Shown here in pieces: positions 20,310 through 37,879 of a stretch of DNA of 64,000 bases (its first letter is position 1; each line of letters begins with the position of its first letter). The translations under genes and the position numbers were made by a program. The notes beneath the pieces are model-generated. The model was given only the letters and a program-made list of their open reading frames with translations. It searched no databases and was not told the origin of the DNA. The DNA comes from Candidatus Omnitrophota bacterium (GTDB lineage: Bacteria > Omnitrophota > Gorgyraeia > Duberdicusellales > 4484-171), in contig JAIPGM010000006.1 of NCBI GenBank assembly GCA_021735655.1, positions 1-64,000 of the forward strand, written 5' to 3'.

Positions 20310-21244
20310 TTTTTAACCTCTAAATGAATATGTTTAGTGATTAATTTATTCGGTGTAACATCAAAGGCCGGATAATAACCCCGAACCCCTTTGGGTGCGA
20401 TCGGTACCCCAGCTAACTCCAACAACTCCTTATCTGGTCTTCTCTCTATTTTTATATCTTTACCAGTTTTAGCCCTTGAGGCCGGAGGGCAAATAACATA
20501 AAAAGGAACCTTAAAATGCTTAGCTAAAATAGCAATCTGATAAGTTCCAACCTTATTAGCAATATCGCCATTTTGAGCTAAATTATCAGCCCCAACAATA
20601 ACCTTATCGATTTTCTTCTCCTGCATTACCTGAGCTACCATATTATCGGTAATTATTGTAACTTTGAATCCGGCTTGGGACAATTCCCAGGCCGTAAGTT
20701 TTGAACCCTGTAAGTATGGTCGAGTTTCAGTAACAAAAAAAGTAACTTTTTTCTTTTGTTCGGCAGCAAATTTACCAATTAGAGGCATAAGCCCGCTAAT
20801 ATTACAGTGGGTCAGAACTACATCGTTGTCTTCAACTAACTTGCTGGCCGTTTGAGCCTGAGATATGCGTTTATTCTTAAGCATCTCTAAAAAGCCGACT
20901 ATAGCCTTCTCAACCGGCACACCAGAAGTAACCCAGGCCAAAACCATATCAGTTAAAAACTTAAAAGAAAGAGTTGGCCGAGTTGAGTTAAGCGCTTTGG
21001 CAACCTTATTTAGTAAAACTAAATTCACTTTTCCTTTATTCTTCCTAATAACTAAAAGAAATGTATACATAACAAGTAAAACTTGGCCTACGGCCCGAGT
21101 TTTCATCTTTTTTATTGCCAAACAGGCCTCTTGATAAGTCTTTACTTTTATGTATTTCACCTTAAAAGGAAGTAAGGTTTCATCAAGAATATAAATAGTA
21201 TCTTTTTTTAACTGAATTGGCCAAAATAAAGGTGAATAATTCAT
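20306..21244 (-). CDS. mtnA: MtnA / eIF-2B-family sugar-1-phosphate isomerase (5-methylthioribose-1-P / 5-deoxyribose-1-P isomerase-like)
   Basis: VLTHCN, ETRPYLQGSKLTAWEL, VGADNLAQNGDIANKVGTYQIA, PAFDVTP motifs diagnostic of MtnA. Confidence 0.8.
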   Translation of the reverse strand: MNYSPLFWPIQLKKDTIYILDETLLPFKVKYIKVKTYQEACLAIKKMKTRAVGQVLLVMYTFLLVIRKNKGKVNLVLLNKVAKALNSTRPTLSFKFLTDMVLAWVTSGVPVEKAIVGFLEMLKNKRISQAQTASKLVEDNDVVLTHCNISGLMPLIGKFAAEQKKKVTFFVTETRPYLQGSKLTAWELSQAGFKVTIITDNMVAQVMQEKKIDKVIVGADNLAQNGDIANKVGTYQIAILAKHFKVPFYVICPPASRAKTGKDIKIERRPDKELLELAGVPIAPKGVRGYYPAFDVTPNKLITKHIHLEVKK

Positions 21245-22044
21245 AGTTTTTTCCTATATTCAGAAAGTATCTTTAAGGTGACTTCGCCGGGGACGCCTTT
21301 TCCTATTTTTTTATCCTCGACCTCAACTAAAGGCATCACCTCCATGAGGCTGCTAGTAACAAAAGCTTCCTCAGAAGCATGAATATCCTCTACTCTAAAT
21401 TCTTTTTCTTTTAAGATTAAGCCGAGTTCTTTAACTATATCAATAACTACTCTTCTGGTGATCCCATCGAATGCTCCATCTTCTAATCTAGGAGTGAAAA
21501 CCTCTTTATCTTTAACCAAAAATAAATTACTTCTTGAACCGCCAGCTAAAAAACACTTAGGATTTATGACTAAGGCTTCCTCTTTGCCCTTACGTTGAGC
21601 CTCTAGCCAAGAAATCCTATTTCTTAAGTAACTTATACTCTTTAACTTGGAAAGCAAATCCTTACCACATCTCCTATGGGAAGAAACTATTGCCGAAAAA
21701 CCCTTCTCATAAACCTCGGAACTATAATAGCCAAATTTATCTACATAAAGCAATACGCCAACCCCTTTTCGCTTCTTATAAACAGTTATCCGAATGTAAG
21801 CATCTTCTAATTCATTCTCTTTAAGCAAAGACTTGATTTCTGTTTCCCAATCCTTTCCTACACTTTCAATTCCGATTAAATCCAACCCTTGGTTTAATCT
21901 TGTAATGTGCTTTTTTAGAAAAGGAATATTTCCTCGATAGGCTCTGAACGGCTCAAAAAGCCCCCAGCCGAATAAAAACCCTGGCTCGAAAATTTCTGCT
22001 ACCTGGGATTTGTCAACTATGTTTCCGTTACAATAGACCTTCAT
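21241..22044 (-). CDS. Class IV (fold type IV) PLP-dependent aminotransferase
   Basis: Length 267 aa and conserved pattern of BCAT/DAAT/ADC-lyase family. Confidence 0.65.
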   Translation of the reverse strand: MKVYCNGNIVDKSQVAEIFEPGFLFGWGLFEPFRAYRGNIPFLKKHITRLNQGLDLIGIESVGKDWETEIKSLLKENELEDAYIRITVYKKRKGVGVLLYVDKFGYYSSEVYEKGFSAIVSSHRRCGKDLLSKLKSISYLRNRISWLEAQRKGKEEALVINPKCFLAGGSRSNLFLVKDKEVFTPRLEDGAFDGITRRVVIDIVKELGLILKEKEFRVEDIHASEEAFVTSSLMEVMPLVEVEDKKIGKGVPGEVTLKILSEYRKKL

Positions 22045-22937
22045 TAACCAAATATATTAAAAAAATTCTTATGGGTAATTTTTTCCTTTACCTTGCCCCC
22101 AAGCGAATCTAACATTTTCAAACTATTGTTAACATCTCCACAAACCGGATAGTCCGAACCCCAAAGAAGTCTATCTTGACCAAACAAATCAATAGCTAGT
22201 TCAATATTCTTTAAAGATCCCCCGGAAGTGTCAACATAAACATTTTTTAGAATCTCACTCGGTGACTTTCCTAAATCTTTAACAATTTCTCTTTTTCTAA
22301 GCATTGCATAGACCCGATCAAATCTATCTTTTAAAAAAGGTACAACCCCGCCTAAAGATGAAAAGATAAAATTCAACTTATACTTTTCTAAAATACCTTC
22401 AACCATCAATAAACCAAGGAATATTGAAGCATCAAAGCTATACTCTAATACCGGCATAAGCAAGGGATCTTTCACCCTTTCAAAACCAATCGGATTGATT
22501 GTCTGAGGATGCACGAAAATAGGCAAGTTGTTACTTTCAGCTGCCTCAAATAGAGGCTCAAGCTCTTTAACCAAAAATTTACCGTTGTGGCTTGAGGCAA
22601 TGCTAATCGCTCCAAAACCTCGCTGCTTTAACTCCTCAACCTGAAAAGCAACTGTTGCTAAACTTTCCGTATCAACAATGCCAGCACCAATAATTTTAGA
22701 ATTTTCCTTAGTGATTTCCTCAAGGGCAGAGTTATAAATATCACAAACTCTTGCGAAAACTTCTAATTTTAAATGAGCGTCAGTTGATGGATAGCAAAGA
22801 AGCGCTTTTTCTATATTATGTTTATCAAGATAAGCAAAAAGCGCATCCCGATCAGTCCAAACACCTTTATAAAAAGCTGTGTAAGCTGATAGCTTTTCAG
22901 GGATAAAATGAATATGAGAATCACACAAGATACTCAA
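22044..22937 (-). CDS. Amidohydrolase-2 family TIM-barrel metal-dependent hydrolase
   Basis: N-terminal CDSHIH metal-binding motif, ~300 aa. Confidence 0.6.
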   Translation of the reverse strand: MSILCDSHIHFIPEKLSAYTAFYKGVWTDRDALFAYLDKHNIEKALLCYPSTDAHLKLEVFARVCDIYNSALEEITKENSKIIGAGIVDTESLATVAFQVEELKQRGFGAISIASSHNGKFLVKELEPLFEAAESNNLPIFVHPQTINPIGFERVKDPLLMPVLEYSFDASIFLGLLMVEGILEKYKLNFIFSSLGGVVPFLKDRFDRVYAMLRKREIVKDLGKSPSEILKNVYVDTSGGSLKNIELAIDLFGQDRLLWGSDYPVCGDVNNSLKMLDSLGGKVKEKITHKNFFNIFG

Positions 22938-24394
22938 ATATGTTTTTCTCCTTTAACTGCACCTTCTTCCCACTTAGCTACGCCCTGCATAACATCCTGA
23001 AAGCATAGCTTAGCTAAAGGGTCAAAATCAGAAGTCATAATTCTCTGAATTCTTCCTGGTTTTGAGAAAAACTCTCGCATCGACCAGGCCCCAAGCCTTC
23101 CTAAATCTTCAATTGTCAAATGGTCAGTCGGTATTACCGGATGTAAAAAATCCCATTTACGAAAATCAATCTTTCGTGGATCAAACCACCCTTTCTTTAA
23201 GCCAATTCTCCACATTGGTGAATTCGGAGCCGGTGTTACATAACCAACCCAAAGAATATCCGGATCAACAGTGTCAGTAAACTCATGTCTTTGTTTAACG
23301 ATCTGTTCAGTGTCATGATCAAAGCCAATCATAATGTCCGCAACCACAGCTACATCCTGAGCTCGCAAGATATCGATTGTTTTTTTAATATGTTCAATGG
23401 TTACCCCTTTAGCAATTTTCTTTAACTCTTCCGGAGTAGTTACCTCTATTCCAAAAACTCCCATAAACAGACCAGTTTCTTTCATTAACGGTAAGATCTT
23501 TTCACAATTTACCCAGTCAATAGCTCTCCCTAAAGAAACCCACTTTATCGGATTTCCTTTTTCCTTCTTTAAATTACAGAACTTCTCCACTCGATCAGCA
23601 TCAACATTAAAGTTATCATCCTGAATTACCACGACTTTAGTCCCAAACTTATGATGCAATAACTCTAGTTCCTCAATTACCCGCTCAGGCGATTTAGCTC
23701 TCCAGGTTAAAAAATCATTAGGTGAGCGAGGATCGTACTGGTTCCACTCATAACAAAAGGTACAGGCTGAAGGACAACCTCGAGAGGTTATCATTTCAAC
23801 AAATGGTTTCCAATGAGTATGACCAACGTATTTATCCATCGGAAACAAATCATAGGCTGGCAAAGGTAAACTGTCTAAATCAGTCATTAACGGTCGGTGT
23901 GGCCCCATCTGAGGCTTGCCATCGATCCTTGACGCTGTTCCAGCTACATCTTTAGTTGAAGTACCAGCTTCAATTGTTTGAACCAAATCAAGAAAACCTT
24001 CTTCCTCAGCCATAACTACATGATCAATAGCCGGATTGTCTTCTAAGGTTTCAATCGGAGTTGCTGAATACCAAAGACCACCAACAACAACTTTAACATT
24101 CGGTAAAACCTGTTTTATCTTAGCGGCGGCTTGATTAAAATGCCAAACAACTCCAAAGCCAACCGCACAATGAATCATATCACCGAGTAAAACTAAGTCA
24201 GGATTAATATCTTTTACCTTTTCTCCCAACTGATCTAAAGCGATACCTAAAACTGTACAATCAAGCACCTGTAAATCATTATAGCCATGTTCGCGGATAT
24301 AGGCTGCCCATTGAGCATATAGTTGATTAGGAGCAAAATGCTCTCCATGAGTTGCCCAAGCGCCTACTTTTGGTGATACAAATAAAATTTTCAT
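22934..24394 (-). CDS. B12-binding-domain radical SAM protein
   Basis: N-terminal Rossmann-like B12-binding region followed by TSRGCPSACTFC Cx3Cx2C. Confidence 0.8.
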   Translation of the reverse strand: MKILFVSPKVGAWATHGEHFAPNQLYAQWAAYIREHGYNDLQVLDCTVLGIALDQLGEKVKDINPDLVLLGDMIHCAVGFGVVWHFNQAAAKIKQVLPNVKVVVGGLWYSATPIETLEDNPAIDHVVMAEEEGFLDLVQTIEAGTSTKDVAGTASRIDGKPQMGPHRPLMTDLDSLPLPAYDLFPMDKYVGHTHWKPFVEMITSRGCPSACTFCYEWNQYDPRSPNDFLTWRAKSPERVIEELELLHHKFGTKVVVIQDDNFNVDADRVEKFCNLKKEKGNPIKWVSLGRAIDWVNCEKILPLMKETGLFMGVFGIEVTTPEELKKIAKGVTIEHIKKTIDILRAQDVAVVADIMIGFDHDTEQIVKQRHEFTDTVDPDILWVGYVTPAPNSPMWRIGLKKGWFDPRKIDFRKWDFLHPVIPTDHLTIEDLGRLGAWSMREFFSKPGRIQRIMTSDFDPLAKLCFQDVMQGVAKWEEGAVKGEKHI

Positions 24395-24408
24395 CTCTTT
24401 AATCCTCC

Positions 24409-25173
24409 TTATTTATCTTCTGGGTGATCTTGTTTAAAAGGAATTACTGGCTTTGTCCAAGGAGTTTGCTGGTTAATAACTGCTATCTCCAAAGGACAGA
24501 CATTTTTATCCTGTTTCAAAGCAAAAATAACAGTATTAGCTACTGCTTCTGGCTCCATTAATCTATCTTCAGCTATATCCTTTAACTTCCCAGTTAAAGG
24601 GGTTCTGGTAACTCCCGGGAAAATTGAAGTAACTTTAATTCCGAAATCACGCATCTCCCAAAAAAGCCCTTTAGCGAAAGCTCTGAGAGCTACTTTAAGC
24701 GAAGTGTAAACAATAAAATTACGCGGTGGGGGATCAACCATAACCGAACCGCTAGTTATATTAACAATATTTCCTCCACCTTGATCTTTCATCGGACCAA
24801 CGACTAACCGAGCAAGCATAACGTAACTAAAATAATTAGTATACATTATCTTTTCGATATCTTCAATTGGCTGATTCCAAAAAGGATGCTGGCTGGACAC
24901 ACCGGCTCCGTTAACTAGACAATCAACTCGGTTAAACTTAGATAAAGTCTCATTGACTAAATTCTCTAAATCAGCTTGTTTAGTAACGTCACACCTTAAG
25001 CATAAAACTTTATCCGGATTCGGCAAAGTTTTTTTAAACTCTTCCAAAACTTCTAGCCTTCTTGCCGCTAAGACTAAAGTCAAACCTTCTTTGGCCAGAC
25101 TTTCAACGATAACCTTACCAATCCCGCCGGAAGCCCCGGTAACAATACAAACTTTTCCTGTTAAATCAGACAT
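24409..25173 (-). CDS. SDR-family oxidoreductase (ketoreductase-like)
   Basis: TGASGGIGK cofactor motif and YxxxK region. Confidence 0.85.
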   Translation of the reverse strand: MSDLTGKVCIVTGASGGIGKVIVESLAKEGLTLVLAARRLEVLEEFKKTLPNPDKVLCLRCDVTKQADLENLVNETLSKFNRVDCLVNGAGVSSQHPFWNQPIEDIEKIMYTNYFSYVMLARLVVGPMKDQGGGNIVNITSGSVMVDPPPRNFIVYTSLKVALRAFAKGLFWEMRDFGIKVTSIFPGVTRTPLTGKLKDIAEDRLMEPEAVANTVIFALKQDKNVCPLEIAVINQQTPWTKPVIPFKQDHPEDK

Positions 25174-25185
25174 AACGCTCCTTTC

Positions 25186-26340
25186 TTAATGAGACTGCCC
25201 TTTTAAGGTCTTAGTCGAATTATCCAATAATCTATTCATAAAGAATCCTAGAAAAAATAAAATTATAGTCATGATGAAAAATAAAATTTTAAAACCAATG
25301 ATTGAACTTGCTAACAAGCTACCAAAAAAAGCCCCTAGGCCACCAAAGCCTAGTCTTAAAGAACTATTTAAACTAGAAGCATCTCTTAAAATTTTATCCG
25401 GCAAATGAGCCAAGTATGCCGACAACCCGGTATGTGAAAGAGCCCAGCCAGCGCCCCAAAAAACAATGGTTAAAATTATTAACTGATATTGCCAACTGAA
25501 CAATAAAATAGCAGTAAATACACTCATCGATATATATCCTATACGAGTAATTTTAATATTCCCAAAAGTAGAGCTCAAAAACCCACCTAAAAACCTAATA
25601 ACTATCGCGCAAACTGTTGAAATAGTAAAAATCGAACTTATCGCAACTTGCCTTAAAGCAAAACGTTCACTCAAATAGACTCCCAAATTTTGTTGTAGAC
25701 CATGGAATAAAAAACTGCCCAGGCCAACTGCTAAGAAAAGACGCAAAGCTTGCTTGTCTTTAAAAGTCTCAAAATAGCTTATCTTGAACTTTTCCCCTCT
25801 AAAATCAAAATCCTCTAAATAAAGTAAAATCAAAATGAAAATAAAAAAACAAAGAACTACCGGGGTTAAATAAATCGCCCGCCAAGGTAAAAAACCGCTC
25901 AAGAAAACTCCCAAGCAAGCTGAAACCGTAGAAAGAGCAAAAAATGTCCCTAAGTGCTTAGCCTTTTTGTCTGAATCTACGGCCTTCCCAATCGTAATAA
26001 AAGCTAGAGGTACGAAACCTGAACCAAAACAACCCATCATAAATCGAAACAAAAATGCCTGGTTTATACTCTGGGAAACACTAAAAAGCAAAGTCGAAAC
26101 ACTAAAGCCTATGATTGATATAAGCAAAAGATTTTTTACAGTAACGCTTCTCGATAGAGGCCCCCAGAAAAAAGCAAAGATGCCATAAGGAAGCATATAA
26201 ATCCAGGTAAGCCGGACAGCTATGTTTTTAGCAACCCCAAAATATTCAGCAATCGTTGGAACCAAAGCTGCTGTAGCTGATAAGCTAAAAGCAATAGCAA
26301 TAAAAATCAAACAAAAAATTAAAAAACTTCCTTTAGGCAT
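25186..26340 (-). CDS. MFS transporter
   Basis: 12 predicted TM helices, 384 aa. Confidence 0.7.
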   Translation of the reverse strand: MPKGSFLIFCLIFIAIAFSLSATAALVPTIAEYFGVAKNIAVRLTWIYMLPYGIFAFFWGPLSRSVTVKNLLLISIIGFSVSTLLFSVSQSINQAFLFRFMMGCFGSGFVPLAFITIGKAVDSDKKAKHLGTFFALSTVSACLGVFLSGFLPWRAIYLTPVVLCFFIFILILLYLEDFDFRGEKFKISYFETFKDKQALRLFLAVGLGSFLFHGLQQNLGVYLSERFALRQVAISSIFTISTVCAIVIRFLGGFLSSTFGNIKITRIGYISMSVFTAILLFSWQYQLIILTIVFWGAGWALSHTGLSAYLAHLPDKILRDASSLNSSLRLGFGGLGAFFGSLLASSIIGFKILFFIMTIILFFLGFFMNRLLDNSTKTLKGQSH

Positions 26341-26768
26341 TATTCCTTCTCAATTATCTCCTTAAATATCTTCATATTTGAAAGAGAATGATCATTGATC
26401 ATTTTTTCAGCTTGCTCATCATTAAATTTTGCGCCAGCAGCCATTTTAAAATCTTGGATCCAAGTCATCTCAGTCCCACCTTCAACCTCACGATACAACC
26501 AAATAATCTTCATAAATTCAAACGGGGCCATTGGCTCAACCCGAGATGCATAAGCAAATTTATCTTCTTTAAATAAAAGTCGGTAAGACTCCCAACTGCG
26601 GCCATTTTCATGGGTAAGCTTAAAAACTATCTTGTTTCCGGAAGTTTCTAAAACATCGCTTTCAACATATTCCTTAAAAAACTCTTTCCAACGTGAAATA
26701 TCATTGCTCATATCAAAAACCTTATCGTAAGTTGCCTTAATCACTACTGAATTTCTAGTGTGTGCCAT
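26340..26768 (-). CDS. SRPBCC-superfamily protein (polyketide cyclase/aromatase-like or lipid-binding)
   Basis: 142 aa, Bet v1-like pattern; context next to KS/CLF/ACP. Confidence 0.5.
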   Translation of the reverse strand: MAHTRNSVVIKATYDKVFDMSNDISRWKEFFKEYVESDVLETSGNKIVFKLTHENGRSWESYRLLFKEDKFAYASRVEPMAPFEFMKIIWLYREVEGGTEMTWIQDFKMAAGAKFNDEQAEKMINDHSLSNMKIFKEIIEKE

Positions 26769-26912
26769 TTTTTCTACCTCCTTTCAATGAGACTTAGTCT
26801 TTTTCTTCGCCTTCGGTTTGAAAAAGACTGTAGTCGAATTGATCCCGCCGAGCCTCGGGTAAATTTACGAAGGAAATTTACCCGATATCCGGGCGAGGCG
26901 GGATTACCTATA

Positions 26913-27716
26913 TTAATTATCAACCATAGCTACCACTCTCGCCCAGGCAGCTCCGGTTTTTCTTATTCTAACTGGAAAACAAATTACTTTGAAACCAAAA
27001 TCAGGTAACTTATCTAAATTGGCTAATCTTTCTATATGAATGAATTCACGTTTTCTTCCATAAAAATGGGTTGGCCAAAGCTTCTTTGGATCTTTTAACT
27101 CTTGAAACTCTTTAATCATAAACTTATAAGGCCGATCAATACCCATAGTATCAACACCGAAAATATTCACTTGCCTTTCAAGCAAATAGTCAATAACCGA
27201 TACATCTATCCCGGGATAATCAGAAAAATACTCTTTTTTGCCAAACAACTTATCCGAACCAGTATGCAATAAAACAATATCTAAAGGTTTTAATGAATAG
27301 TTAATCTTTTTTAGGCCGGCGTCTATATCTTGAGCAGTAATAACCTCTTCTGGTTTCTTATGCGTTAAATCGATTTTTACTCCCTGCTGGTAACACCAGT
27401 CTAAAGGTATTTCATCGGCAGTTTTTGAAGGGCGCCCCTGGGACTTACTACCATAATGATAAGAATAATCGAGATGTGTCCCACTGTGGACCGATGAATA
27501 AACCATCTCTAAAGATAAAAACTCTTCATCGGGCAAGTCTTCTTTTTTAATCATTCGCTCACCCTGTTCATAGCGAGCTTTACTTTCCGAATCACGCGAC
27601 ATCAAAACCTTATTTAACTTCTCAACCCCTTCACTGTGAGAAGTGCGCTCAATTCTTAAAGGATGTACTTCAAAGGCTTGGTCATCTATCGGCAGGCTCA
27701 AATCAACTATTTTCAT
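26913..27716 (-). CDS. Cyclase-family protein (kynurenine formamidase-like, PF04199)
   Basis: HSGTHLDYSYHYG resembling the HxGTHxDxPxH metal motif of the cyclase family. Confidence 0.65.
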   Translation of the reverse strand: MKIVDLSLPIDDQAFEVHPLRIERTSHSEGVEKLNKVLMSRDSESKARYEQGERMIKKEDLPDEEFLSLEMVYSSVHSGTHLDYSYHYGSKSQGRPSKTADEIPLDWCYQQGVKIDLTHKKPEEVITAQDIDAGLKKINYSLKPLDIVLLHTGSDKLFGKKEYFSDYPGIDVSVIDYLLERQVNIFGVDTMGIDRPYKFMIKEFQELKDPKKLWPTHFYGRKREFIHIERLANLDKLPDFGFKVICFPVRIRKTGAAWARVVAMVDN

Positions 27717-27731
27717 ATGTCTGTTATTTGC

Positions 27732-27965
27732 TTACTGCTTTTTTTTAGAAATTGTTTCGGTTATCTCTAAGGGAGTGGAAAACTTTGTAACCTCATCGGC
27801 CTCAAGATTAACTTGAAAGTTTTTCTTTAAGGCCACTACCAATTCCACTACTTCGGTTGAATCTACACCGATCGAATCATACATTTTCTGATCTTCTTTT
27901 AATTCCTCTTTACCAATATCTAATGTTTTACAAATAAGCTCAATTACCTCTTCTTTTAGCGCCAT
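27732..27965 (-). CDS. Acyl carrier protein
   Basis: 77 aa, acidic four-helix pattern with DSIGVDSTEVVEL phosphopantetheine-attachment-like site. Confidence 0.7.
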   Translation of the reverse strand: MALKEEVIELICKTLDIGKEELKEDQKMYDSIGVDSTEVVELVVALKKNFQVNLEADEVTKFSTPLEITETISKKKQ

Positions 27966-27980
27966 ATTTACCTCCTCAAT

Positions 27981-29213
27981 TTATTCTTTCTCAATTGCTA
28001 AAACAACATTTATTCCGCCACGACCTCTGGCCAAGATAAGAGCTTTCTTAACCTCAGCTTCCCTAGATTTATTCGGAGTATAATCTAAATCGCAGCAAGG
28101 ATCTTTCATTTCATAGTTAATGGTCGGTAGGATGGTTGAACTTTTCATCGAAAAAAGTGTCGAAATTAAATCTAAAGCTGTTTGAGCGCCCAATAAATTG
28201 CCATACATACTTTTAGGAGCACTTAAAGCAATATCTTTTATCCTTGTGCCGAATACATTCTTTAAGCTTCTGGTTTCAAGATAATCACCAAGTTCAGAAG
28301 CCTCAGCGTCTAAGCAAATATAATCAACCGCATCTTTTTTCCAACCAGCATCTTTGAGACATTCTTCTATCGCATACTCAAAATTACTTGAGTCGGGCCG
28401 GTAGCGTGAATAATGGTATCCATCAGAAGAAAACCCGATACCTTTTATAAACCCATACACCGGTACCCCTCTTTTTTTGGCTTGTGATTCCCTCTCTAGA
28501 AGCACAGTGCCTGATCCTTCGGCAATTACAAAACCGTCTCGATATAAATCGTAAGGTCGGTAGGCTTTTTTAAAGTTAAGGTTATTCTTTGATAAACCAC
28601 CCCGAGAATTAGCACATAAAAGTGCGTAGGGGCTAATCGGGGCTTCCATACCCCCAGCTACAACATAATCGTTTTTACCTTGGGCTACGGTTTTTGCCCC
28701 ATACCACAAAGCTAAGGCTGATGAAGCCTTGTCAGCGACTATGGTCTTACTATACCCTTTAAATCCGTAATAAATAGTAACTTGTCCTTGAGGGGCTGCC
28801 GGAAACCAGGCACTAGCCATATAAGGCGAAATACCTTCTCTTCCTTCAATATACATATCACGTAATTCGGTTTCAGCAAAAAGCCAGCCACCTAAAGCAT
28901 TACCCATAAAAACGCCAACTTTATTTTTATCAATATTATCTAAATCAATTTTTGAATCTTTAAGTGCCTGCTCACAAGAAACAAGAGCCATATGAGAAAA
29001 AACATCGATCTTTTTTACTAAGCGACCGGAAAGATGAGTATAGTGATCAAGCTCATGAACTTGACCGGCAATTCGTGAAGGATAACCGGAAGAATCAAAA
29101 CGGTTTACTTCATCGATAAACGATCCGCCTCGCTTAAGGTTAGCCCAAAAAGTTTCTTTCTTCAATCCACAAGGTGAAACTACACCAATACCAGTTATTG
29201 CTATTCTTTCCAT
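27981..29213 (-). CDS. Ketosynthase-like protein lacking catalytic Cys/His/His (chain-length-factor / KS-beta-like)
   Basis: Thiolase fold; active-site positions read ...DKASSAL... (no Cys), DAEAS instead of NAHGT, SMYGN instead of SMxGH. Confidence 0.75.
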   Translation of the reverse strand: MERIAITGIGVVSPCGLKKETFWANLKRGGSFIDEVNRFDSSGYPSRIAGQVHELDHYTHLSGRLVKKIDVFSHMALVSCEQALKDSKIDLDNIDKNKVGVFMGNALGGWLFAETELRDMYIEGREGISPYMASAWFPAAPQGQVTIYYGFKGYSKTIVADKASSALALWYGAKTVAQGKNDYVVAGGMEAPISPYALLCANSRGGLSKNNLNFKKAYRPYDLYRDGFVIAEGSGTVLLERESQAKKRGVPVYGFIKGIGFSSDGYHYSRYRPDSSNFEYAIEECLKDAGWKKDAVDYICLDAEASELGDYLETRSLKNVFGTRIKDIALSAPKSMYGNLLGAQTALDLISTLFSMKSSTILPTINYEMKDPCCDLDYTPNKSREAEVKKALILARGRGGINVVLAIEKE

Positions 29214-29216
29214 TAT

Positions 29217-30467
29217 TTAAGCCTCCCACCGTTTGAATACAATTGATGAATGTATTCCTGAAAATCCACTGCTTGTTTTTAATATGTAATTAGGCATAAG
29301 TTTTCGTTTTTTATTAGGAATATAGTCTAGATCGCACTTTGGATCTTGTTCTTCCTGATTAATGGTTGGCGGGAGATAACCACCTTTAAAAATCATACAG
29401 CAAAGTACAGCTTCAGCAGCATTAGCTGCAGCTAAAGGATGACCAATCATTGACTTTATCGAACTAATCGGAATTTTATAAGCTAAGTCACCAAAAACTT
29501 GCTTATAGGCATCCGTCTCAAAAGTATCGTTCTGCCTGGTGCTTGAACCGTGGGCATTAATATAACCTATCTCTTCCTTCTTAATCCCTGCCTCTTTAAT
29601 TGCCTCCTCCATACAGCGAGCCATTGGCTCACCGCTAGCCGGTAGATCAGTCATATGATAAGCATTGCAACTTGTGCCATAACCTAAAACTTCCGCATAA
29701 ATTGGAGCCCCGCGCTTTTTAGCATGCTCAAGCTCCTCCATAATTACAATTCCCGCTGCCTCAGAAATTACAAAGCCATTTCGCTTATTATCAAAAGGAC
29801 GCGAGGCCTTATGTGGCTCATCATTATTTTTAGCTAAAACATTTACCACGTCAAAAGCACCAAAGGTAATCGGAGTAACCGGAGCCTCACTTGCCCCGGC
29901 AATAATAAATTCCTGCCTGCCCTCACGAATAAGCTCATAGGCAAAGCCTATCGAATCGCTTCCTGCGGTACAACCAGTTGAAACCGTACAGTTCATACCT
30001 TGAGTTCCATAAACTGCTCCCACCTCAGCGCTGGGACTATTAAACATAGCTGCATCATAAAGATAAGGTCGACCTTTTCTTGGATCAATTGGTTTTTTAC
30101 CCCACTCGGTAACTAATAAAAACTCCTCTTCCATGAAGCGGGTTCCGCAAATTGCATTAGCTAAAACTACACCACAGCGACGGCGGTCAACGCTTTCAAA
30201 GTCAATTTTTGAATCGCTAACTGCCTGTTTAGCCGCGGCAACTGCAAATTGAACATACCTATCCATACGCTTATGCTCAGCGATTCCATAGTTCAAAGGA
30301 TCGAACCCTAAAACCTGAGAAGCAATCTTTGAAACAAAAATACTAACATCAAAATTTTCAACTAGCTCAACGGAAGACCTACCTTCAATAAGGTTATTAT
30401 AAAACTCATGTTTATCTTCGCCAGCTCCCGAAATTATCCCAACTCCAGTAATAACTACTCTTCTCAT
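29217..30467 (-). CDS. Beta-ketoacyl-ACP synthase (FabF-like, active KS-alpha)
   Basis: STGCTAGS active-site Cys, NAHGSST and IGHPLAAA His motifs. Confidence 0.88.
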   Translation of the reverse strand: MRRVVITGVGIISGAGEDKHEFYNNLIEGRSSVELVENFDVSIFVSKIASQVLGFDPLNYGIAEHKRMDRYVQFAVAAAKQAVSDSKIDFESVDRRRCGVVLANAICGTRFMEEEFLLVTEWGKKPIDPRKGRPYLYDAAMFNSPSAEVGAVYGTQGMNCTVSTGCTAGSDSIGFAYELIREGRQEFIIAGASEAPVTPITFGAFDVVNVLAKNNDEPHKASRPFDNKRNGFVISEAAGIVIMEELEHAKKRGAPIYAEVLGYGTSCNAYHMTDLPASGEPMARCMEEAIKEAGIKKEEIGYINAHGSSTRQNDTFETDAYKQVFGDLAYKIPISSIKSMIGHPLAAANAAEAVLCCMIFKGGYLPPTINQEEQDPKCDLDYIPNKKRKLMPNYILKTSSGFSGIHSSIVFKRWEA

Positions 30468-30480
30468 TATTTAATACTCC

Positions 30481-31104
30481 TTAATCTTTTCGGGTAATCT
30501 TAAAAATAATATTTCCACCATCAGGACAAGTTACTGTATCAATAGAATTATGATCCTTCATGAAGAAAAATTTAGCTCCAAAATTAAGAGCAAAAAGAGC
30601 CGGAAAGGCGACATGCCAGGCTGCCCCACAAAATCCATCAATACACTTTAAACCTTTTACCTGCCACTTATCACCCAGCTTATATTTATAAGAACATTTA
30701 CCTTTAGCTTTAACAACTTCAATCTCCATGTTTTTAGGATTAGGTCCTTTGTGGTTAGGGTCTTTAGGAATAAATTTAACTTTGTCATTCTTGTCTAATA
30801 GCTCAACTAAAAATTCGGCCTTTCCACCATCAGGGCAAGTAACTTTTAGAGATTTCTGATTATCCATAAAGCCAAACCGGGCGCCAAAACTTAGAGCATA
30901 AGCAACCGGAAAAAGTGCATGGGCTAAACCTAAACAAAAATGTTTAGGCGGATGGGTAAAATCTCCCAAAATAAACTCATCGTTAACTTCGTAACCATGA
31001 TAACACTCTCCATAAACTCCAATACAAGTTAACTTCAACCTAGGAAAAGGAGTATTGATATCGGCACAGTTAGCCTTGCAATATTCATCTTTACAATTTT
31101 TCAT
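30481..31104 (-). CDS. Tandem-duplicated Cys/His-rich small-domain protein (TIGR04076-like, tentative)
   Basis: Two internal repeats each with FC.G.AHA.FP...AL.FGA.F.FM......VTCPDGG. Confidence 0.45.
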   Translation of the reverse strand: MKNCKDEYCKANCADINTPFPRLKLTCIGVYGECYHGYEVNDEFILGDFTHPPKHFCLGLAHALFPVAYALSFGARFGFMDNQKSLKVTCPDGGKAEFLVELLDKNDKVKFIPKDPNHKGPNPKNMEIEVVKAKGKCSYKYKLGDKWQVKGLKCIDGFCGAAWHVAFPALFALNFGAKFFFMKDHNSIDTVTCPDGGNIIFKITRKD

Positions 31105-31137
31105 ATGATTTTAGCTCCTTAATAAATCTATCCTTTT

Positions 31138-32142
31138 TTAAGAATTAATCGAATTTATTTCTCTCAACAACTCTTCTTTAGATAAAAATCTACCAGTCTC
31201 CTCTAAATTATGCACTAGCTCAACTATTTTTTGATTAAGCTTAGCCGGCTCACAGTTAGCTATAGCCTGATGTATGATTTCTCCGTTAATATAGTCAATT
31301 TCTGATTTTTTCCCACGCTTTATGGATTGTAAAATTGAACCATATAAAGGTTCTTTGCTTAAATTAGTCATAATTTTTGAGAATAGACCAGCTGCTTCAT
31401 CTAAAGGCATCTTAACTAAGCCTTCAATTCTCTCCTTGGGATAAGTTAAAAGACTGGCTAATTCTATATTAGCCTTGGTTATAATTTCATAGGCTTCTTT
31501 GTTCAGCTTAATTGCCAAGCGGGCTAAGTCTATATCAACAAATGCCTCCTGCATCGAAACTCCCAGAATAGCCGGAATGCAATTATTTAAATTTACAAAT
31601 AACTTAAGATACTTAGCACCTTTTATATTATCTGAACTAACTACGTTGAAGGCTGGTTTAAGTAGATTAACGACTTCTTCGTATTTTTCTACTTTAGTAT
31701 TATATATATTTCCTAATACGAGTTCACCTTCAAAATTATGGATAACCTTATCCGGTGAGTAAAAAGTTGCCCCAAACATAACAATCCCGCTCAGTATTTT
31801 ATTTTCGGGGATAAAACTATTAACAATATGATCGGCCTGTATTCCATTTTGAGTAGTTAGAGCTAAAGAATTTTTCAAAAATTCAAAATTGTCGTTGATA
31901 ATTGCTTCAAGATCATTAACCTTGGTTGCAAAAATGGCTAAGTCTACCCTTTCAGTTAACTTTGTATCAACCTTAACTTCTTGCTTATGACTACCGCGGA
32001 CACCCTCTAAGCTCAGGCCTTCTTTTAGTAATAAACCTTTCTGATGATCACGAACAACGCCGACTACATCATGGCCATCTTTAGCAAGATAACCTAAAAA
32101 TAATCCGCCAATTGCTCCGCAACCTAATACTGCTATTTTCAT
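31138..32142 (-). CDS. Ketopantoate reductase (ApbA/PanE) family NAD(P)-dependent oxidoreductase
   Basis: MKIAVLGCGAIGG Rossmann motif, length 334 aa. Confidence 0.75.
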   Translation of the reverse strand: MKIAVLGCGAIGGLFLGYLAKDGHDVVGVVRDHQKGLLLKEGLSLEGVRGSHKQEVKVDTKLTERVDLAIFATKVNDLEAIINDNFEFLKNSLALTTQNGIQADHIVNSFIPENKILSGIVMFGATFYSPDKVIHNFEGELVLGNIYNTKVEKYEEVVNLLKPAFNVVSSDNIKGAKYLKLFVNLNNCIPAILGVSMQEAFVDIDLARLAIKLNKEAYEIITKANIELASLLTYPKERIEGLVKMPLDEAAGLFSKIMTNLSKEPLYGSILQSIKRGKKSEIDYINGEIIHQAIANCEPAKLNQKIVELVHNLEETGRFLSKEELLREINSINS

Positions 32143-32151
32143 AAATTTATT

Positions 32152-32412
32152 CTACTCTTTTATATATTTCGAATATTCAATGCCCTGCTGGCTAAAAAGT
32201 CTTTTCATCATATCTTTAAAGGCCGGGGGCACTTCTTTAAAAAAAGCGATAACCACATCTTGGTCTTCTACGGCCTCAGAGTTTCTTTTGGTAGCTAGTT
32301 CTTCAGCGCTTTCTTTAACTAGTTGCTCAGCTATTGAGCGATGAAATTGGGGAAGATTTTCAATTACCTTATCAAAATGTTCTTTTGCTTTATCGGACCA
32401 CTTAATATCCAT
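32152..32412 (-). CDS. Small PCP_red-like domain protein
   Basis: IKWSDKAKEHFDKVIENLPQFHRSIAEQLVKESAEELA matches W-S/T-x-E-A...IP-x-F-x-R pattern of standalone PCP_red (PF08369) proteins. Confidence 0.45.
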   Translation of the reverse strand: MDIKWSDKAKEHFDKVIENLPQFHRSIAEQLVKESAEELATKRNSEAVEDQDVVIAFFKEVPPAFKDMMKRLFSQQGIEYSKYIKE

Positions 32413-32421
32413 ATAATCCTC

Positions 32422-33156
32422 CTACAGTTTATCAATTGCCTCAAAGGCTAAATCAGTCATCTTCATTTCAGCCCCGAAAAAACGATAATCACTAAATCCC
32501 ATCTGGCCGGTTATGAGATTGTCCGACACTACACAAATTGCCGCAGCCCGTTTATTATTAAGGTTAGCAACCGTTACAAAGGGTGAAGTTACCATGTCTA
32601 CGGCAATCGCTCCTTTCTCAATATAGGGGTTAACAATTTCTTTGGTCTCACGAAAGATAGCGTCGGTAGTCCAAATCCCTCCTCGGTGAACAGATCCGGC
32701 CCCGGAAAAAGAATTCTCTAAAATGTCGGTTACCTCATTGTCTACCTTAGGTTTATAATCGTCATCAACATAATAACGAGTTGTTCCATCTCCACGCAAA
32801 ACATCGGTCACTAAAACATAATCCCCGATATTAATGTCCTGACGTAGAGCCCCACAAGAACCCAATCTAATAAATGTCTTAACCCCTCCGGCACAAAGTA
32901 TCTCAGTAGCTAGGGCTGAGTCAGGAGCGTAAAATCCTCCATTACCGACAGTAATTTTTCTCCCCTTATAAAGCCCGGTCCAAAAGGTATAAGCTAAAAA
33001 AGTAAAGTTCTTGACTGGATTTTCTAATTTCTTTAGACACATTTGAGCCCGATGTTGTTGACCGCTTACTAAAACAATATCACCAAAATCACCCGGCTTA
33101 AACTGCAAAGAAGCTAAAAGCCCCTTAGGATCCATATGAACATCTCTCTGCATCAT
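32422..33156 (-). CDS. PNP/UDP-family nucleoside phosphorylase (putative 5'-deoxyadenosine/MTA phosphorylase or futalosine-hydrolase-like)
   Basis: RLGSCGAL phosphate-binding motif and VDMVTSPF (E-M-E-x-A-like) region. Confidence 0.7.
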   Translation of the reverse strand: MMQRDVHMDPKGLLASLQFKPGDFGDIVLVSGQQHRAQMCLKKLENPVKNFTFLAYTFWTGLYKGRKITVGNGGFYAPDSALATEILCAGGVKTFIRLGSCGALRQDINIGDYVLVTDVLRGDGTTRYYVDDDYKPKVDNEVTDILENSFSGAGSVHRGGIWTTDAIFRETKEIVNPYIEKGAIAVDMVTSPFVTVANLNNKRAAAICVVSDNLITGQMGFSDYRFFGAEMKMTDLAFEAIDKL

Positions 33157-33158
33157 AG

Positions 33159-34631
33159 CTATACTCCTCGATTAATTAGTTTTGTTTTATCTATCTTTCC
33201 GGTTCTATTTTTAGGTAACTCTTTTACAAATTCAAAATAATGCGGCATTTTAAAATGAGCTAAGCTCTGTTTTAAAAAATCTTTTAACTCTGAATCATCT
33301 AAATTTTCCCCGTCTTTAGCAACAATGAAAGCTTTTGGAACTTCTCCACGTAGTTTATCACCCACACCAATAACAGCCGCCTCTTTTACTTTGGGACATT
33401 GGCTTATTTTTTCTTCGACTTCAGCCGGAAAAACAATCTCACCAGCTACCTTAATCATATCTTTTTTTCGCCCAACAATATAATAAAGGCCTTGGCTGTC
33501 AAACGATGCAATATCTCCAGTTCTAAACCAGCCATCTTCGGTTAGGGCTTCTTTAGTTAAATCTGGCTCTCTAAAATACCCCTTAGTCACAGCTTTACCT
33601 TTAACCATTAGTTCCCCTTTCTTATCAAGCCCGAGAGACTTACCTTCAGGATCAACAATCTTTACTTCTAAGTCAGAGGTAAAATTACCAATGCTTCTTA
33701 TCTTATCATCGCCGGGCGGTGAAATAGTATTGGGAGCGGCGGTTTCGGTCATCCCCCAACCATTGGCTAATTGAGCATTAGGATAAGCCCTATGAAAACG
33801 CTTGAGTAGGGCTGGTGAAGATGGCGCACCGAAAACAACTGCATAACGCAGAGAAGAAAAATCAAAACCCTGGTATTCTTTCAAAGATAAAATAGCCATA
33901 AACATTGCCGGAACAATACAAAAAATAGTTACCTTATGTTCTTGAATATTCTTTAAAAACTCAAAAGGATGAAAGCGTGGCATCAAAACTAACTTACAAG
34001 AAAAATAAAGCATCAATAATATGTAATCTAAGCCACCGACATGAGAAAAAGGAACTCCGCCGCATAAAAATACATCACCGGAAGAAACGCTTAAAAACTG
34101 ATCAATAACCTTTGGTGGGTTACCGAGTTGTGAATAGTTAAGCATTACCCCTTTGGGATGACCAGTTGAACCAGAAGTATAAAATATTGCTGCTAGGTCG
34201 CTTTCAGAAATATCTAAAGATATCTCATCGGTCTTCTCAAAGCTTAATTCAGTAACTATTTCACCTAAGTCAGGACAACTGCTTTTAATTTTATCTAAAT
34301 CAACTCCCTTTCTAGGCTGGATAATTAATAGTTTAGCCTGACTATGATTAAGAAAGTTTATAACTTCCTCTTCAGTAAGCATATAGTCTAAAGGCACAAC
34401 GCAGGCTCCAAGACAAAATACTCCTAAAAAACTATAGATAGTTTCCGGAATATTAGGAAGGAAAAGGGCCACCTTATCATCTTTGCCAATACCCTTAATT
34501 TGCAAATAATTACTAACCCCCAAAGCCATAGCTTTAACCTCTGAGAAAGAAATACTCCTTCCTTCAAAGATAATAGCTGATTTATCCGAACAATTTTGGG
34601 CGTGCTTTTTAAGTAAATCCTGAATATGCAT
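33159..34631 (-). CDS. AMP-dependent synthetase/ligase (fatty acyl-AMP/CoA ligase)
   Basis: YTSGSTGHPKGV AMP-binding motif, 490 aa; first gene of minus-strand operon. Confidence 0.85.
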   Translation of the reverse strand: MHIQDLLKKHAQNCSDKSAIIFEGRSISFSEVKAMALGVSNYLQIKGIGKDDKVALFLPNIPETIYSFLGVFCLGACVVPLDYMLTEEEVINFLNHSQAKLLIIQPRKGVDLDKIKSSCPDLGEIVTELSFEKTDEISLDISESDLAAIFYTSGSTGHPKGVMLNYSQLGNPPKVIDQFLSVSSGDVFLCGGVPFSHVGGLDYILLMLYFSCKLVLMPRFHPFEFLKNIQEHKVTIFCIVPAMFMAILSLKEYQGFDFSSLRYAVVFGAPSSPALLKRFHRAYPNAQLANGWGMTETAAPNTISPPGDDKIRSIGNFTSDLEVKIVDPEGKSLGLDKKGELMVKGKAVTKGYFREPDLTKEALTEDGWFRTGDIASFDSQGLYYIVGRKKDMIKVAGEIVFPAEVEEKISQCPKVKEAAVIGVGDKLRGEVPKAFIVAKDGENLDDSELKDFLKQSLAHFKMPHYFEFVKELPKNRTGKIDKTKLINRGV

Positions 34632-35884: not shown

Positions 35885-36375
35885 TTTATTATTAGACTTT
35901 TGAGTTTTTTTCTTTTAGTCAGTCGAGGATAAGAAACAGGAGCGCCTAAAGCTATAACCGCTTCTAGCTCAAGGTTAGGCCTTAACTTAAGATATTTATG
36001 AACCTTTTTCTTTTGATTAAGAATCTCACCTAGCCAGCAGGCGCCTAACTTTTTAGAATGAATACAAAGTAATATGTTTTGAATACAAGAACCAATGGCC
36101 ATTAGATCTTTCTCATAATTATAAGAGGTCTTCTTATCTAAAAATACTAAAATAAGTTTATCGGCTGATTTGATAATATGACCATAATGAGTAAAAACAG
36201 CCAAAGCATCCTTTTTCTCCTTATCTAGAACCATAAACCGCCAGGGCTGGTTATTGAGTCCCGAAGGCGCCCAGCGACCAGCCTCTAAAATTTTGTTAAC
36301 CGTCTGCCTAGAAACAGCCCTCTTTTTAAACTTTCGCACTGACCTTCTATCTTTTATTAACCTTAACGCTCTCAT
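35881..36375 (-). CDS. Nitroreductase-family protein
   Basis: DRRSVRKF ... APSGLNNQPW nitroreductase motifs. Confidence 0.8.
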   Translation of the reverse strand: MRALRLIKDRRSVRKFKKRAVSRQTVNKILEAGRWAPSGLNNQPWRFMVLDKEKKDALAVFTHYGHIIKSADKLILVFLDKKTSYNYEKDLMAIGSCIQNILLCIHSKKLGACWLGEILNQKKKVHKYLKLRPNLELEAVIALGAPVSYPRLTKRKKLKSLIIK

Positions 36376-37699
36376 AGCTAGCTACTCCATTATTCTTATC
36401 GCTAAACCCTCTTTTATCATAAAGATTATCGAGCGGGCTTTCAGGGATATTTACCATATCCCTTAATATATGCGTATAAATCATTGTAGTTTCTACATGC
36501 TTATGCCCTAACAGTTCCTGGACTTCTCGAATATTAACCCCATTCATTAAAAGATGTGTTGCGAAGCTATGCCTGAGAGTATGCACGCTGGCGCGTTTTA
36601 TAATTCCGGCTTTCTTTACCGCAATAGCTACAATCTTTTGAACTGTATTGGGACTTATATGATGTCTTCGGATTTTACCACTCCTAGGATCAATTGAAAG
36701 TCGAGAAGATGGAAAAGCATACTGCCACCCCCACTCCTTAGCAGCTTTAGAATATTTGTGCTCTAAAGCATTCGGTAGATATACCTCTCCATAACCGGCA
36801 GCTTTATCTTCTTCGAAAATATTCTTAACTTGCTCTAAATGTTTTCTGAGAGAACTACCTAACGCCTGTGGCAGCATAGTGCTACGGTCTTTATCCCCTT
36901 TTGCTCCGCGTAAAAATAAAATATTGCTCTCAAAATCAATATCCTGCACTCGCAAGCGCACGAGCTCCATAAGCCGCAACCCTGAACCATAAAGCAATTG
37001 CACAATTAATAAATCTTTATTCCTTAGTTGTTCAAATAACCCTTGTATTTCCTTAACTGACAAAACTGTTGGTAATTTAGGGCCCCGCTTTGCGCGAACG
37101 GTTTCAGCTAAATTATTTACTTCTATTTTTAGAACATCTCGAAATAAAAATAAAAGTGCATTAAAGGCTTGGTTCTGGGTCGAAGATGAAACTCGACCCT
37201 CTATAGCTAGATATGTCAAATAATCTTTAACATCTTCTGGGGTTAGCTTCTGAGGATATATCTGCTTTCGCTTTCCTTTATTTAAATAATCAAAAAATCT
37301 CTTTGCCCATGTAACGTATGTCCTTTCTGTGCTATAAGAAAAATGCTTCACTCGAATGGCATTCGTCATTTTCTTTAACAAATCATCAAAATTAACATCT
37401 TCATCTTTAAATCTAGATACTTCGACAGATTTAATCTTATAAATTTGAGGTGGAGCAAAATTGTCTACATATATACTTATCGCTTCTTTGGCCTGCTGAA
37501 ATTGCCACTCTTCAATTTTTATAATCTTTAGCTTTTCAAAAAACTTTTCTTTCTGTTCCTCAAGTGATGATTTTGGACGAATACAACAGAATTTAAGAAA
37601 TCTATCTACCCAATAGGCATAAAAAGGGGCTGTTTTTTCTGTAGCTAATTTCTTTGAAATTAAAAATCTTTGAAATTGAGATAACACACCTATTTTCAT
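36347..37699 (-). CDS. intI: Integron integrase IntI (tyrosine recombinase) with ~110-aa N-terminal extension
   Basis: [37 protein letters not shown] (IntI-specific insertion, matches IntI1 ALERKYPRAG...DPRSGVVRRHH), [24 protein letters not shown] with catalytic Tyr. Confidence 0.92.
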   Translation of the reverse strand: [450 protein letters not shown]

Positions 37700-37879
37700 G
37701 ACTTTTCTTTCTTTGCCATAAATCCAATGATATACATAATATACATTTCCTGATATTATAGATAAATTACATAATTAAAGCAACATTTTTCTTCCAAAAT
37801 CATTAAAAACATGCTAAAATTTTACTATATATATCAATAAAATATAAAAACATATATTATGCATATTAATTGTTAGATG
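37700..37879 (+). other. attI region with GTTAGAT core site (recombination point G37872|TT)
   Basis: aattGTTAGATgtaaaat immediately upstream of first cassette ORF; AT-rich. Confidence 0.65.
37713..37741 (+). promoter_or_regulatory. Candidate cassette promoter Pc (TTGCCA-17-ATAATA)
   Basis: TTGCCA 37713-37718 and ATAAT(A) 37736-37741 oriented toward cassette array, located at intI 5' end/attI as in known integrons. Confidence 0.5.

Follow-up and report, generated by a model that had tools for sequence, protein, structure and literature searches.

The gap and its two hairpins

The window considered here is a 64,000-nt (64-kb) stretch of contig JAIPGM010000006.1 (positions 1 to 64,000, forward strand) in a metagenome-assembled genome (MAG) of a Candidatus Omnitrophota bacterium (assembly GCA_021735655.1), and the feature under study is a two-hairpin element that fills a 144-nt gap (26769–26912) in a long minus-strand operon. 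The gap is probably one copy of a dispersed, modular, hairpin-forming mobile repeat that is co-transcribed with the operon and resembles repetitive extragenic palindromes (REPs), bacterial interspersed mosaic elements (BIMEs) and MITEs (miniature transposable elements with inverted repeats).

The host operon (21241–34631, minus strand) is of a type II polyketide synthase-like kind. It includes the ketosynthase (KS) genes KS-alpha (29217–30467) and KS-beta (27981–29213), an acyl carrier protein (ACP) gene (27732–27965), a putative cyclase gene (PF04199; 26913–27716) and a SRPBCC/polyketide cyclase-dehydrase gene (PF10604 and PF03364; 26340–26768), all on the minus strand, followed by MFS, SDR, B12-radical-SAM and other genes. 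A TIGR04076-family protein, an AMP-ligase and a PNP_UDP_1 protein are also encoded. The cluster is widely conserved in Omnitrophota, occurring in hundreds of assemblies, and 351 homologues of the SRPBCC protein are found at E ≤ 1e-5. The gap lies between the cyclase and SRPBCC genes and is the sole sizeable one of the operon, as the first-pass annotation had stated; no other gap among the contiguous minus-strand genes of 21241–34631 exceeds 33 nt.

Read on the mRNA strand, the cyclase gene ends in a TAA stop codon 8 nt before the first hairpin. The intervening AT-rich stretch TATAGGTA (26905–26912) may be a 5′ module of the insert or native spacer, and it resembles both the spacer of an orthologous empty site (L002; loci from other genomes are cited by number) and the AT-rich 5′ module of copies in the MAG CAZSRG01. 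The first hairpin, H1 (26842–26904), is a GC-rich imperfect palindrome with a G+C-rich closing stem (ATCCCGCC/GGCGGGAT), a TC/TC 2x2 loop and an inner stem (CGGGTAAATTT/AAATTTACCCG). After the conserved linker TCAATTCG (26835–26842) comes the second hairpin, H2 (26792–26834; ACTACAGTCTTTTTC ... GAAAAAGACTAAGT), of the subtype referred to below as subtype a. The two hairpins are ~1 nt apart in this copy. A conserved tail, CTCATTGA (26784–26791), forms the 3′ end of the element, and its ATTGA pairs with TCAAT of the linker. The native Shine–Dalgarno (SD) sequence of the SRPBCC gene, AAGGAGG (26777–26783), follows, and the same SD is present at orthologous loci without the element; the start codon lies 15 nt past the tail. 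All of these features are on the minus strand, and the gap as a whole reads TATAGGTA-ATCCCGCC..GGCGGGAT-CAATTCG-ACTACAGTCTTTTTC..GAAAAAGACTAAGT-CTCATTGA-AAGGAGG-N8-ATG.

Folding of the mRNA-sense (minus) strand predicts two adjacent hairpins with a minimum free energy of −50 kcal/mol (z = −3.5), equalled by 1 of 200 shuffled sequences, while the plus strand folds at −60.8 kcal/mol (z = −5.7), equalled by 0 of 200. The two adjacent long hairpins of the first-pass annotation are thus borne out, since the folds beat shuffles on both strands. Their limits shift by 1–2 nt, with the AT-type hairpin at 26791–26835 on the plus strand (formerly 26792–26836) and the GC-rich palindrome at 26842–26904 (formerly 26843–26906). 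The G+C content of the latter, which had been singled out as high, is 56% versus 37% for the window. The GGAGG core of the SD (AAGGAGG, 26783–26777) begins 2 nt past the second hairpin, and the predicted fold leaves it unpaired, in agreement with the earlier placement of the element just upstream of the SRPBCC ribosome-binding site. The apical loop of H2 is the exact inverse of the loop consensus in sister copies (e.g., L036 and L039), a flip of the hairpin tip. The element also lies within an 82-codon plus-strand open reading frame (ORF; 26760–27008), almost certainly an artefact of the palindrome, that could be mis-annotated as a gene.

An intrinsic terminator or attenuator between the cyclase and SRPBCC genes could account for a stable, G+C-rich hairpin, and a scan did return a single terminator-like call, a weak substructure internal to H1. 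Such a role is nevertheless very improbable. Neither hairpin is followed by a U-tract on the mRNA strand (H1 runs into AUCAAUUCG and H2 into CUCAUUGAAAGGAGG), the genes that follow overlap or are closely packed, none with a promoter-like site of its own, and other members of the family stand directly before the start codons of essential genes, e.g., dnaK and glnA. The earlier judgement that this is not a plain terminator is supported by the missing U-tract. Promoter-like sites within the element are no more frequent than in shuffled sequence. Co-transcription with the operon is proposed because no promoter-like or terminator-like signal separates the element from its neighbours.

Distribution and placement of the repeat family

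The two-hairpin repeat family is previously undescribed, is multi-copy and occurs mainly in Candidatus Omnitrophota. A species-representative genome collection of 596 Gb was searched with the pattern GGCGGGNTCAATTCGN{30,60}CTCATTGA, which specifies 22 bases, and gave 79 loci versus ~2 expected by chance under uniform composition. Most are from MAGs labelled Candidatus Omnitrophota. By hand count from record titles, ~20 of the 79 come from “uncultured Planctomycetia/Planctomycetales” MAGs, nine from Syntrophaceae, Smithellaceae or “delta proteobacterium” MAGs, and four from MAGs labelled merely “bacterium” or “uncultured bacterium”. The same repeat family in two unrelated phyla suggests lateral transfer or bin contamination; likewise, close relatives in Syntrophaceae/Smithellaceae MAGs hint at DNA exchange between co-occurring lineages, if not at contaminated bins. 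Multiple copies per MAG are common to CAZSRG01 (at least 14), JBDRMG01 (4) and CAKKQO01 (4). In addition, nhmmer profiles built from 39 canonical copies detected 108 copies across 692 kb of locus sequence, one of which is in the window.

Searches of other resources gave no prior name for the family. In Rfam 15, the region 26300–27400 matched no family (best score 19 bits versus a gathering score of 50; E = 7.5 in a scan at E ≤ 10), and at gathering thresholds ten other family-bearing loci yielded tRNA and group I intron matches outside the element and none on it. A literature search on the motif strings and on Omnitrophota repeats or MITEs found nothing relevant to this family, and viral contigs gave 0 matches to the family pattern. 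The top of H1 specific to the window was matched in metagenomes at six loci, which carry related but distinct elements, with no second insertion site of the window's own copy.

Members of the family share the layout (A/T)TCCCGCC..H1..GGCGGG-R-TCAATTCG..H2..CTCATTGA, with a core length of ~121–129 nt. H1 is closed by (A/T)TCCCGCC and GGCGGGA(T/A), followed by a TC/TC 2x2 loop, while its interior is variable and often ends as xxxxAAAATT-loop-AATTTTxxxx. Linker TCAATTCG and tail CTCATTGA form a TCAAT/ATTGA helix, inside which come a further TC/TC loop and a G-C pair. H2 occurs as one of two interchangeable subtypes: subtype a, ACTAAGYGxTTTTTY..RAAAAAxCRCAAGT, which is that of the window copy, and subtype b, xxxACTTAYGTY..TCCRTAAGTxxx. 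The stems covary. In the alignment designated A2, 98.7% of cells are in standard pairs versus 87.0% in shuffles, and the covariation score is 0.343 versus 0.121 for shuffled alignments (0 of 500 reach 0.343) and ≤0.057 with slid partners. Compensatory changes are seen at six pairs, and the junction motifs are fixed.

The modules also occur in larger arrangements. Tandem head-to-tail arrays have AT-rich spacers of ~24 nt, and in one MAG near-identical H1 hairpins are joined to different H2 hairpins. A subfamily possesses a third, upstream hairpin that is an H2-type arm in inverted orientation, and the whole element is therefore palindromic and REPIN/BIME-like; these three-hairpin variants alone are palindromic overall.

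Comparison of the same junction in related genomes provides the empty site. The cyclase–SRPBCC junction is 28 nt in L002–L005 (SRPBCC protein 88% identical), 32 nt in L092 and 14 nt in L009–L011, with the AAGGAGG SD kept in each. Judged by these junctions, the gap in the window is a lineage-specific insertion of a member of the repeat family. Other junctions of this gene cluster are occupied as well, varying by genome: cyclase–SRPBCC in the window and L036, KS-beta–ACP in L006, and the region upstream of PNP_UDP_1 in L044, L066 and L089. The family is multi-copy, is variably present at orthologous junctions and resides at different junctions of the same cluster in different genomes. In L006–L008, for example, the same element plan is found at the KS-beta/ACP junction with entirely different stem sequences; it reads there CCCCGCCC..GGGCGGGG-TTCAATTCG-hairpin-CTCATTGA-AGGAGG-ATG.

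Unrelated long palindromes fill the cyclase–SRPBCC junction in L091 (2375–2500) and L006 (2406–2500). Structured inserts are acquired repeatedly at this junction. Further along in L006, a small gene for a bAvd/23S-rRNA-intervening-sequence protein (PF05635, PF22296; 4886–5287, plus strand) is inserted between the SDR and B12-radical-SAM genes of the cluster.

The occupied junction of L036 (4800–5110, plus strand) is more complex. The H2 subtype of the window follows the cyclase stop codon; next come a second, diverged stretch coding for the C-terminus of the resident cyclase (AAAWARVVATT*) and a hairpin region also present in L006. One-sided homologous recombination with foreign DNA would leave behind just such a relic, and L036 shows one route of spread.

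The first-pass annotation had offered a regulatory, processing or stability element or, alternatively, a REP-like repeat. Of these, the REP-like repeat has stood, and an element regulating this operon in particular has not. A cis-regulatory RNA specific to the polyketide-like operon, such as a riboswitch, an attenuator or an EAR/put-like antitermination element, would suit a location inside a long biosynthetic operon and two hairpins ~1 nt apart, but it is highly unlikely. The family is dispersed before unrelated genes and is absent from the same junction in three relatives that keep the whole operon, and for these reasons the operon-specific interpretation is unsupported; moreover, Rfam gave no match. 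Occurrence at many unrelated intergenic sites had been named beforehand as the finding that would count against an operon regulator, and the family is indeed found in dozens of genomes next to unrelated genes.

The family is strongly oriented, with a marked bias in position towards the 5′ edges of ribosome-binding sites. Of 82 copies, 60 are followed within 30 nt, on the same strand, by the start of an ORF of ≥60 codons, at a median of 11 nt (interquartile range 10–12). A SD-like core directly abuts the tail in 46 of the 82 and is 1–4 nt off in 11 more, so that GGRGG lies ≤4 nt from the tail in 57. The adjacency holds for copies inside operons and for those with no upstream gene within 400 nt. 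The downstream genes are diverse, and include dnaK, glnA, gcvH, clpP, ACP, PNP_UDP_1, pyruvate kinase and ferredoxins. Since 54 downstream proteins span 101 Pfam families, the family is not tied to one regulon.

A second setting is that of tRNA genes. A Cys-Leu-Val tRNA cluster carries the element in three genomes, with the tail ending exactly at +1 of tRNA-Leu(UAA). In L027 (1680–2045, plus strand) and the equivalent region of L072, tRNA-Arg(UCU) is split in the anticodon loop by a ~294-nt group-I-like intron with the core GTGTAGAGACT, which Rfam did not call at E < 0.1. The first ~125 nt (5′ end) of that intron are the repeat element in reverse orientation, and GCCTT stands on both sides of the insert. 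Two loci of metagenome Ga0265297, L093 (800–1290, plus strand) and L097 (2600–3080, minus strand), possess a tRNA gene with an Rfam-confirmed group I intron (82–83 bits). There, a related two-hairpin element is inserted after tRNA position ~10, upstream of the intron-containing tRNA gene. An exact direct duplication of 31 nt flanks this element and gives back an intact tRNA 5′ end; upstream is a canonical TTGACG-17-TATAAT promoter. A group I intron origin of the element was considered and rejected because the intron cores are outside it: RF00028 has no match on the element, the core of L027 lies beyond it, and the matches in L093 and L097 are ~100 nt away.

Copies from Syntrophaceae and other deltaproteobacterial MAGs occupy a further setting. 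In L045, L047, L048 (5900–6040) and L081, the tail CTCATTGA and the CA after it make up a −35 box, TTGACA, and 16 nt downstream of it stands a −10-like hexamer, TATACT or TATATT. The pair precedes a superoxide dismutase gene in L048.

Proposed mobility as DNA and possible RNA function

In the window, the short cyclase–SRPBCC spacer received the element just upstream of a pre-existing SD, and the insert would now be transcribed within the operon mRNA without termination of transcription. In the predicted fold the SD would be free of pairing, with a stable helix ending 2 nt before it, and tight translational coupling may have given way to an independently initiated cistron. Copies would spread as DNA in a hairpin- or single-stranded DNA (ssDNA)-dependent manner, target-biased to sites immediately 5′ of GGRGG, with additional spread by homologous recombination of the flanking genes. 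They may persist because copies in sense orientation do the downstream cistron no harm, or benefit it mildly by acting as a 5′ hairpin or insulator beside the SD. Any effect on that cistron is probably at most generic, i.e., uncoupling, 5′ protection or insulation.

Several findings weigh against a mobile repeat. There is no detectable target-site duplication, as the mean longest word shared between flanks is 4.10 versus 4.13 ± 0.12 with shuffled partners. Terminal inverted repeats are lacking in the two-hairpin form, that of the window copy included (its ends are ATCCCGCC... and ...CTCATTGA), and the exact 5′ end of the element is ambiguous by ~20 nt. Neither a mismatch-tolerant pattern search nor nhmmer profiles of the full element, of H1 and of H2 revealed a second copy in the window. 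In Syntrophaceae MAGs the copies have no adjoining SD, and SD adjacency is therefore not intrinsic to every subfamily. No transposase or recombinase linked to the family was found in the search described below, and the RAYT-like gene of L056 is flanked by a different REP family. Finally, slow divergence and exact spacing to the start codon could instead mean a selected RNA function.

The last point belongs to the leading alternative, in which the element works primarily as RNA, a module in 5′ leaders and intercistronic spacers that serves as a processing site and/or as a 5′ stabiliser and insulator and is placed there by selection rather than by insertion bias. It is a partly compatible rival on account of the precise spacing and slow divergence, and it would be compatible with mobility; it is considered possible but doubtful. 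The strong bias in sense orientation and the fixed distance to the start codon are as expected for such a module, as is the finding that copies far from any upstream gene still adjoin a SD. The covarying stems are also in its favour, together with the identity of orthologous pairs, which is higher in the element than at synonymous sites of the adjacent gene (0.97 versus 0.77 for L018/L087, and 0.86 versus 0.76 for L025/L082). No T-run follows the element in sense orientation (family mean of 1.3 T in the 9 nt past the tail), and many of the downstream genes are typically highly expressed (dnaK, glnA, clpP, ACP, gcvH and ferredoxins). A terminator acting in reverse orientation was considered as the cause of the orientation bias and rejected as weakly supported, with ≥5 T in the 9 nt past the hairpin in 18 of 63 copies.

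The composition of the stems speaks less for RNA. Oppositions of G.U and A.C in the stems are symmetric (63 versus 75) and thus mark no RNA strand. With RNA parameters the strand opposite the mRNA has the more stable fold in 59 of 63 copies, and with DNA parameters in 53 of 63, because the invariant TC/TC loops of the mRNA become YGAR tandem G.A on that strand and the common triloops read C-GAA-G or C-GTA-G there. These YGAR tandem G.A and C-GAA-G/C-GTA-G triloops are unusually stable DNA hairpin motifs. The sense strand does show an excess of CUUCGG (20 versus 2), which does not decide the strand because it is equally readable as C-GAA-G triloops on the other. Also at odds with an RNA module are the tip of H2 in the window copy, which is inverted with nothing else changed, the reversed orientation relative to transcription of copies inside or next to tRNA genes, and the Syntrophaceae copies away from any SD.

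The same DNA-type motifs would fit a non-autonomous derivative or substrate of a HUH/Y1 system, either of the IS200/IS605 type, as in palindrome-associated transposable elements (PATEs), or of the type formed by REPs and their REP-associated tyrosine transposases (RAYTs). Such an element would move as folded ssDNA and insert without duplication beside a short target, 3′ of CCTCC on the other strand. This origin is rather unlikely on present evidence, for all that subterminal hairpins, the missing terminal inverted repeats of the two-hairpin form and the missing target-site duplication are in keeping with it. The flank is strand-specific, with GGRGG within 4 nt in 57 of 82 copies, although SD constraints confound the inference of a target from this count and the Syntrophaceae copies differ. 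G-rich flanks that are not SDs are found at tRNA-Leu (GGGCAAG) and on the antisense of tRNA-Arg (AAGGCAG). A universal 5′ flanking core of TTGA or ATTGA was proposed and rejected, since it is not general across copies.

A candidate enzyme was sought by tblastn with three Y1/HUH queries against the 692 kb of locus sequence. Two RAYT-like ORFs were recovered, both in element-bearing Omnitrophota MAGs: L056 5800–6600 and L021 5379–5921, each on the minus strand. Their matches to NF047646, at 56 and 55 bits, fall short of its cut-off of 80, and those to PF01797 score 32 and 25 bits (cut-off 23). The presence of such genes in these MAGs is favourable to a HUH/Y1 origin, but the L056 ORF, the sole one with flanking repeats, is flanked on both sides by the unrelated palindrome CCGTTGTACACCCCAGGGGTGTACAACGG, and that of L021 has no repeats and is wedged in an arg operon, overlapping the argG and ornithine carbamoyltransferase genes as if domesticated. 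Across the 692 kb there was no RAYT gene flanked by copies of this repeat, no autonomous form of the kind H1 ... ORF ... H2, and, with the three queries, no cognate Y1 transposase with matching element ends. In addition, some related insertions have long duplications (31 nt in L093; the relic gene end in L036), which are not a signature of IS200/IS605.

For the spread of the repeat as mobile DNA, a target-biased, hairpin- or ssDNA-dependent mechanism is favoured because of the G-rich non-SD flanks at tRNA-Leu and on the tRNA-Arg antisense, the lack of duplication and the DNA-type hairpin motifs. A bolder and quite tentative proposal, which is more likely wrong than right, is that of a ribosome-binding-site-seeking mobile module. 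Its integration machinery would recognise the GGAGG region, or its RNA would work only when fused to that region, and it would colonise the 5′ edges of translation starts and tRNA 5′ ends phylum-wide. A trans-acting enzyme or RNA-binding protein would read the invariant junction motifs, GGCGGGRTCAATTCG and CTCATTGA, and the tandem TC/TC (G.A) loops.

Known repeats and the meaning of the family

In kind, the family is closest to REP/BIME/REPIN elements and to co-transcribed MITE-like repeats, yet it fails their defining tests, having no flanked RAYT in the 692 kb covered, no terminal inverted repeats and no duplication. What is distinctive is the two-module, head-to-tail plan, the invariance of the junction motifs across the phylum and the placement at SD sequences.

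The REP/BIME/REPIN elements of Proteobacteria are RAYT-associated and, like the present family, are short, imperfect, multi-copy palindromes of extragenic regions that are also found within operons. They, too, form singletons, inverted pairs and mosaic clusters in which linkers are conserved, and they are co-transcribed, as the present family probably is; RAYT-like genes exist in the same phylum as this repeat. In contrast, the units described here are longer, consisting of two different ~60-nt hairpins arranged head-to-tail with a 3′ end that abuts the SD, and neither a RAYT gene flanked by the repeat nor a GTAG-type 5′ tetranucleotide was found.

Correia of Neisseria, ERIC/IRU of Enterobacteria and Chunjie of Geobacter are MITE-like, co-transcribed repeats that, like the present family, form hairpins and are 100–150 nt long. 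MITE-like repeats insert intergenically and between the genes of operons without breaking the operon, join the mRNAs, and can alter processing and stability; the present family probably behaves likewise. Correia, ERIC and Chunjie have terminal inverted repeats, and Correia a TA duplication. The two-hairpin form differs in having no terminal inverted repeats and no detectable duplication. Precise adjacency to a SD is not known as a feature of the Correia, ERIC/IRU and Chunjie families. The PATEs derived from IS200/IS605 are alike in their subterminal hairpins, absence of inverted termini and of duplication, and, as far as the flanks suggest, strand-specific insertion beside a short motif. They are unlike the present family in that no cognate TnpA was found for it in the 692 kb, IS608 and ISDra2 have neither its putative target (CCTCC on the opposite strand) nor its geometry, in which the junction coincides with a hairpin foot, and some of its relatives carry long duplications. 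For the MITE-like repeats, PMC3184786 is a general review.

Among RNA elements, the RNase III sites of phage T7 are intercistronic processing hairpins and offer an analogue for an RNA module. The plastid intercistronic expression element (IEE) is a processing or stabilising hairpin between cistrons (PMC2230500). Both share with the present repeat a hairpin shape with conserved internal loops and a position between cistrons, directly before the following SD. They are fixed, single-locus elements with demonstrated cleavage, whereas this is a dispersed, polymorphic repeat with at most a putative processing role.

Integron attC sites are a third comparison, as they too are structure-conserved, sequence-variable imperfect palindromes that fill gene spacers and can form tandem-like arrays. 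The window does encode a true integron integrase, IntI (36347–37699, minus strand; TIGR02249, 395.7 bits, cut-off 265), 9.5 kb from the element, which is itself an imperfect palindrome of attC-like length filling a spacer. An attC recombination site is nonetheless most improbable. The element has no RYYYAAC or GTTRRRY boxes, its conserved ends being TCAAT and ATTGA, and because the core sites are missing this identity is rejected. Moreover, the integron's own attC-like site (39190–39285; ATCTAAC ... GTTATCT) looks different, and the element is in a conserved operon on the other side of intI, outside the presumed cassette array and remote from it, with no tie to promoterless cassettes. As to the integrase neighbourhood itself, a run of plus-strand ORFs with a flip in GC skew lies next to the integrase gene at 37700–45000; the attC-like palindrome of 39190–39285 is GC-rich, and further GC-rich palindromes are located at 43846–43875 and 44517–44558. 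Integrase, ORF run and palindromes together have the appearance of a chromosomal integron carried by an Omnitrophota MAG.

The Omnitrophota have not been brought into culture, and annotation of their non-coding DNA is essentially lacking. A repeat of this kind explains puzzling gaps in otherwise conserved operons as well as spurious small ORFs, such as that of 26760–27008 on the plus strand. It offers markers for strain typing and is a likely cause of assembly breaks in MAGs. The practical message for the biosynthetic operon of the window is that the element is not to be read as a pathway-specific regulatory switch. As a possible natural insulator or stabiliser exactly at ribosome-binding sites, it may be of interest to operon engineering. 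For the family itself, the invariant junction motifs point to a partner acting in trans, be it an enzyme that mobilises the repeat or a factor that binds or processes RNA.

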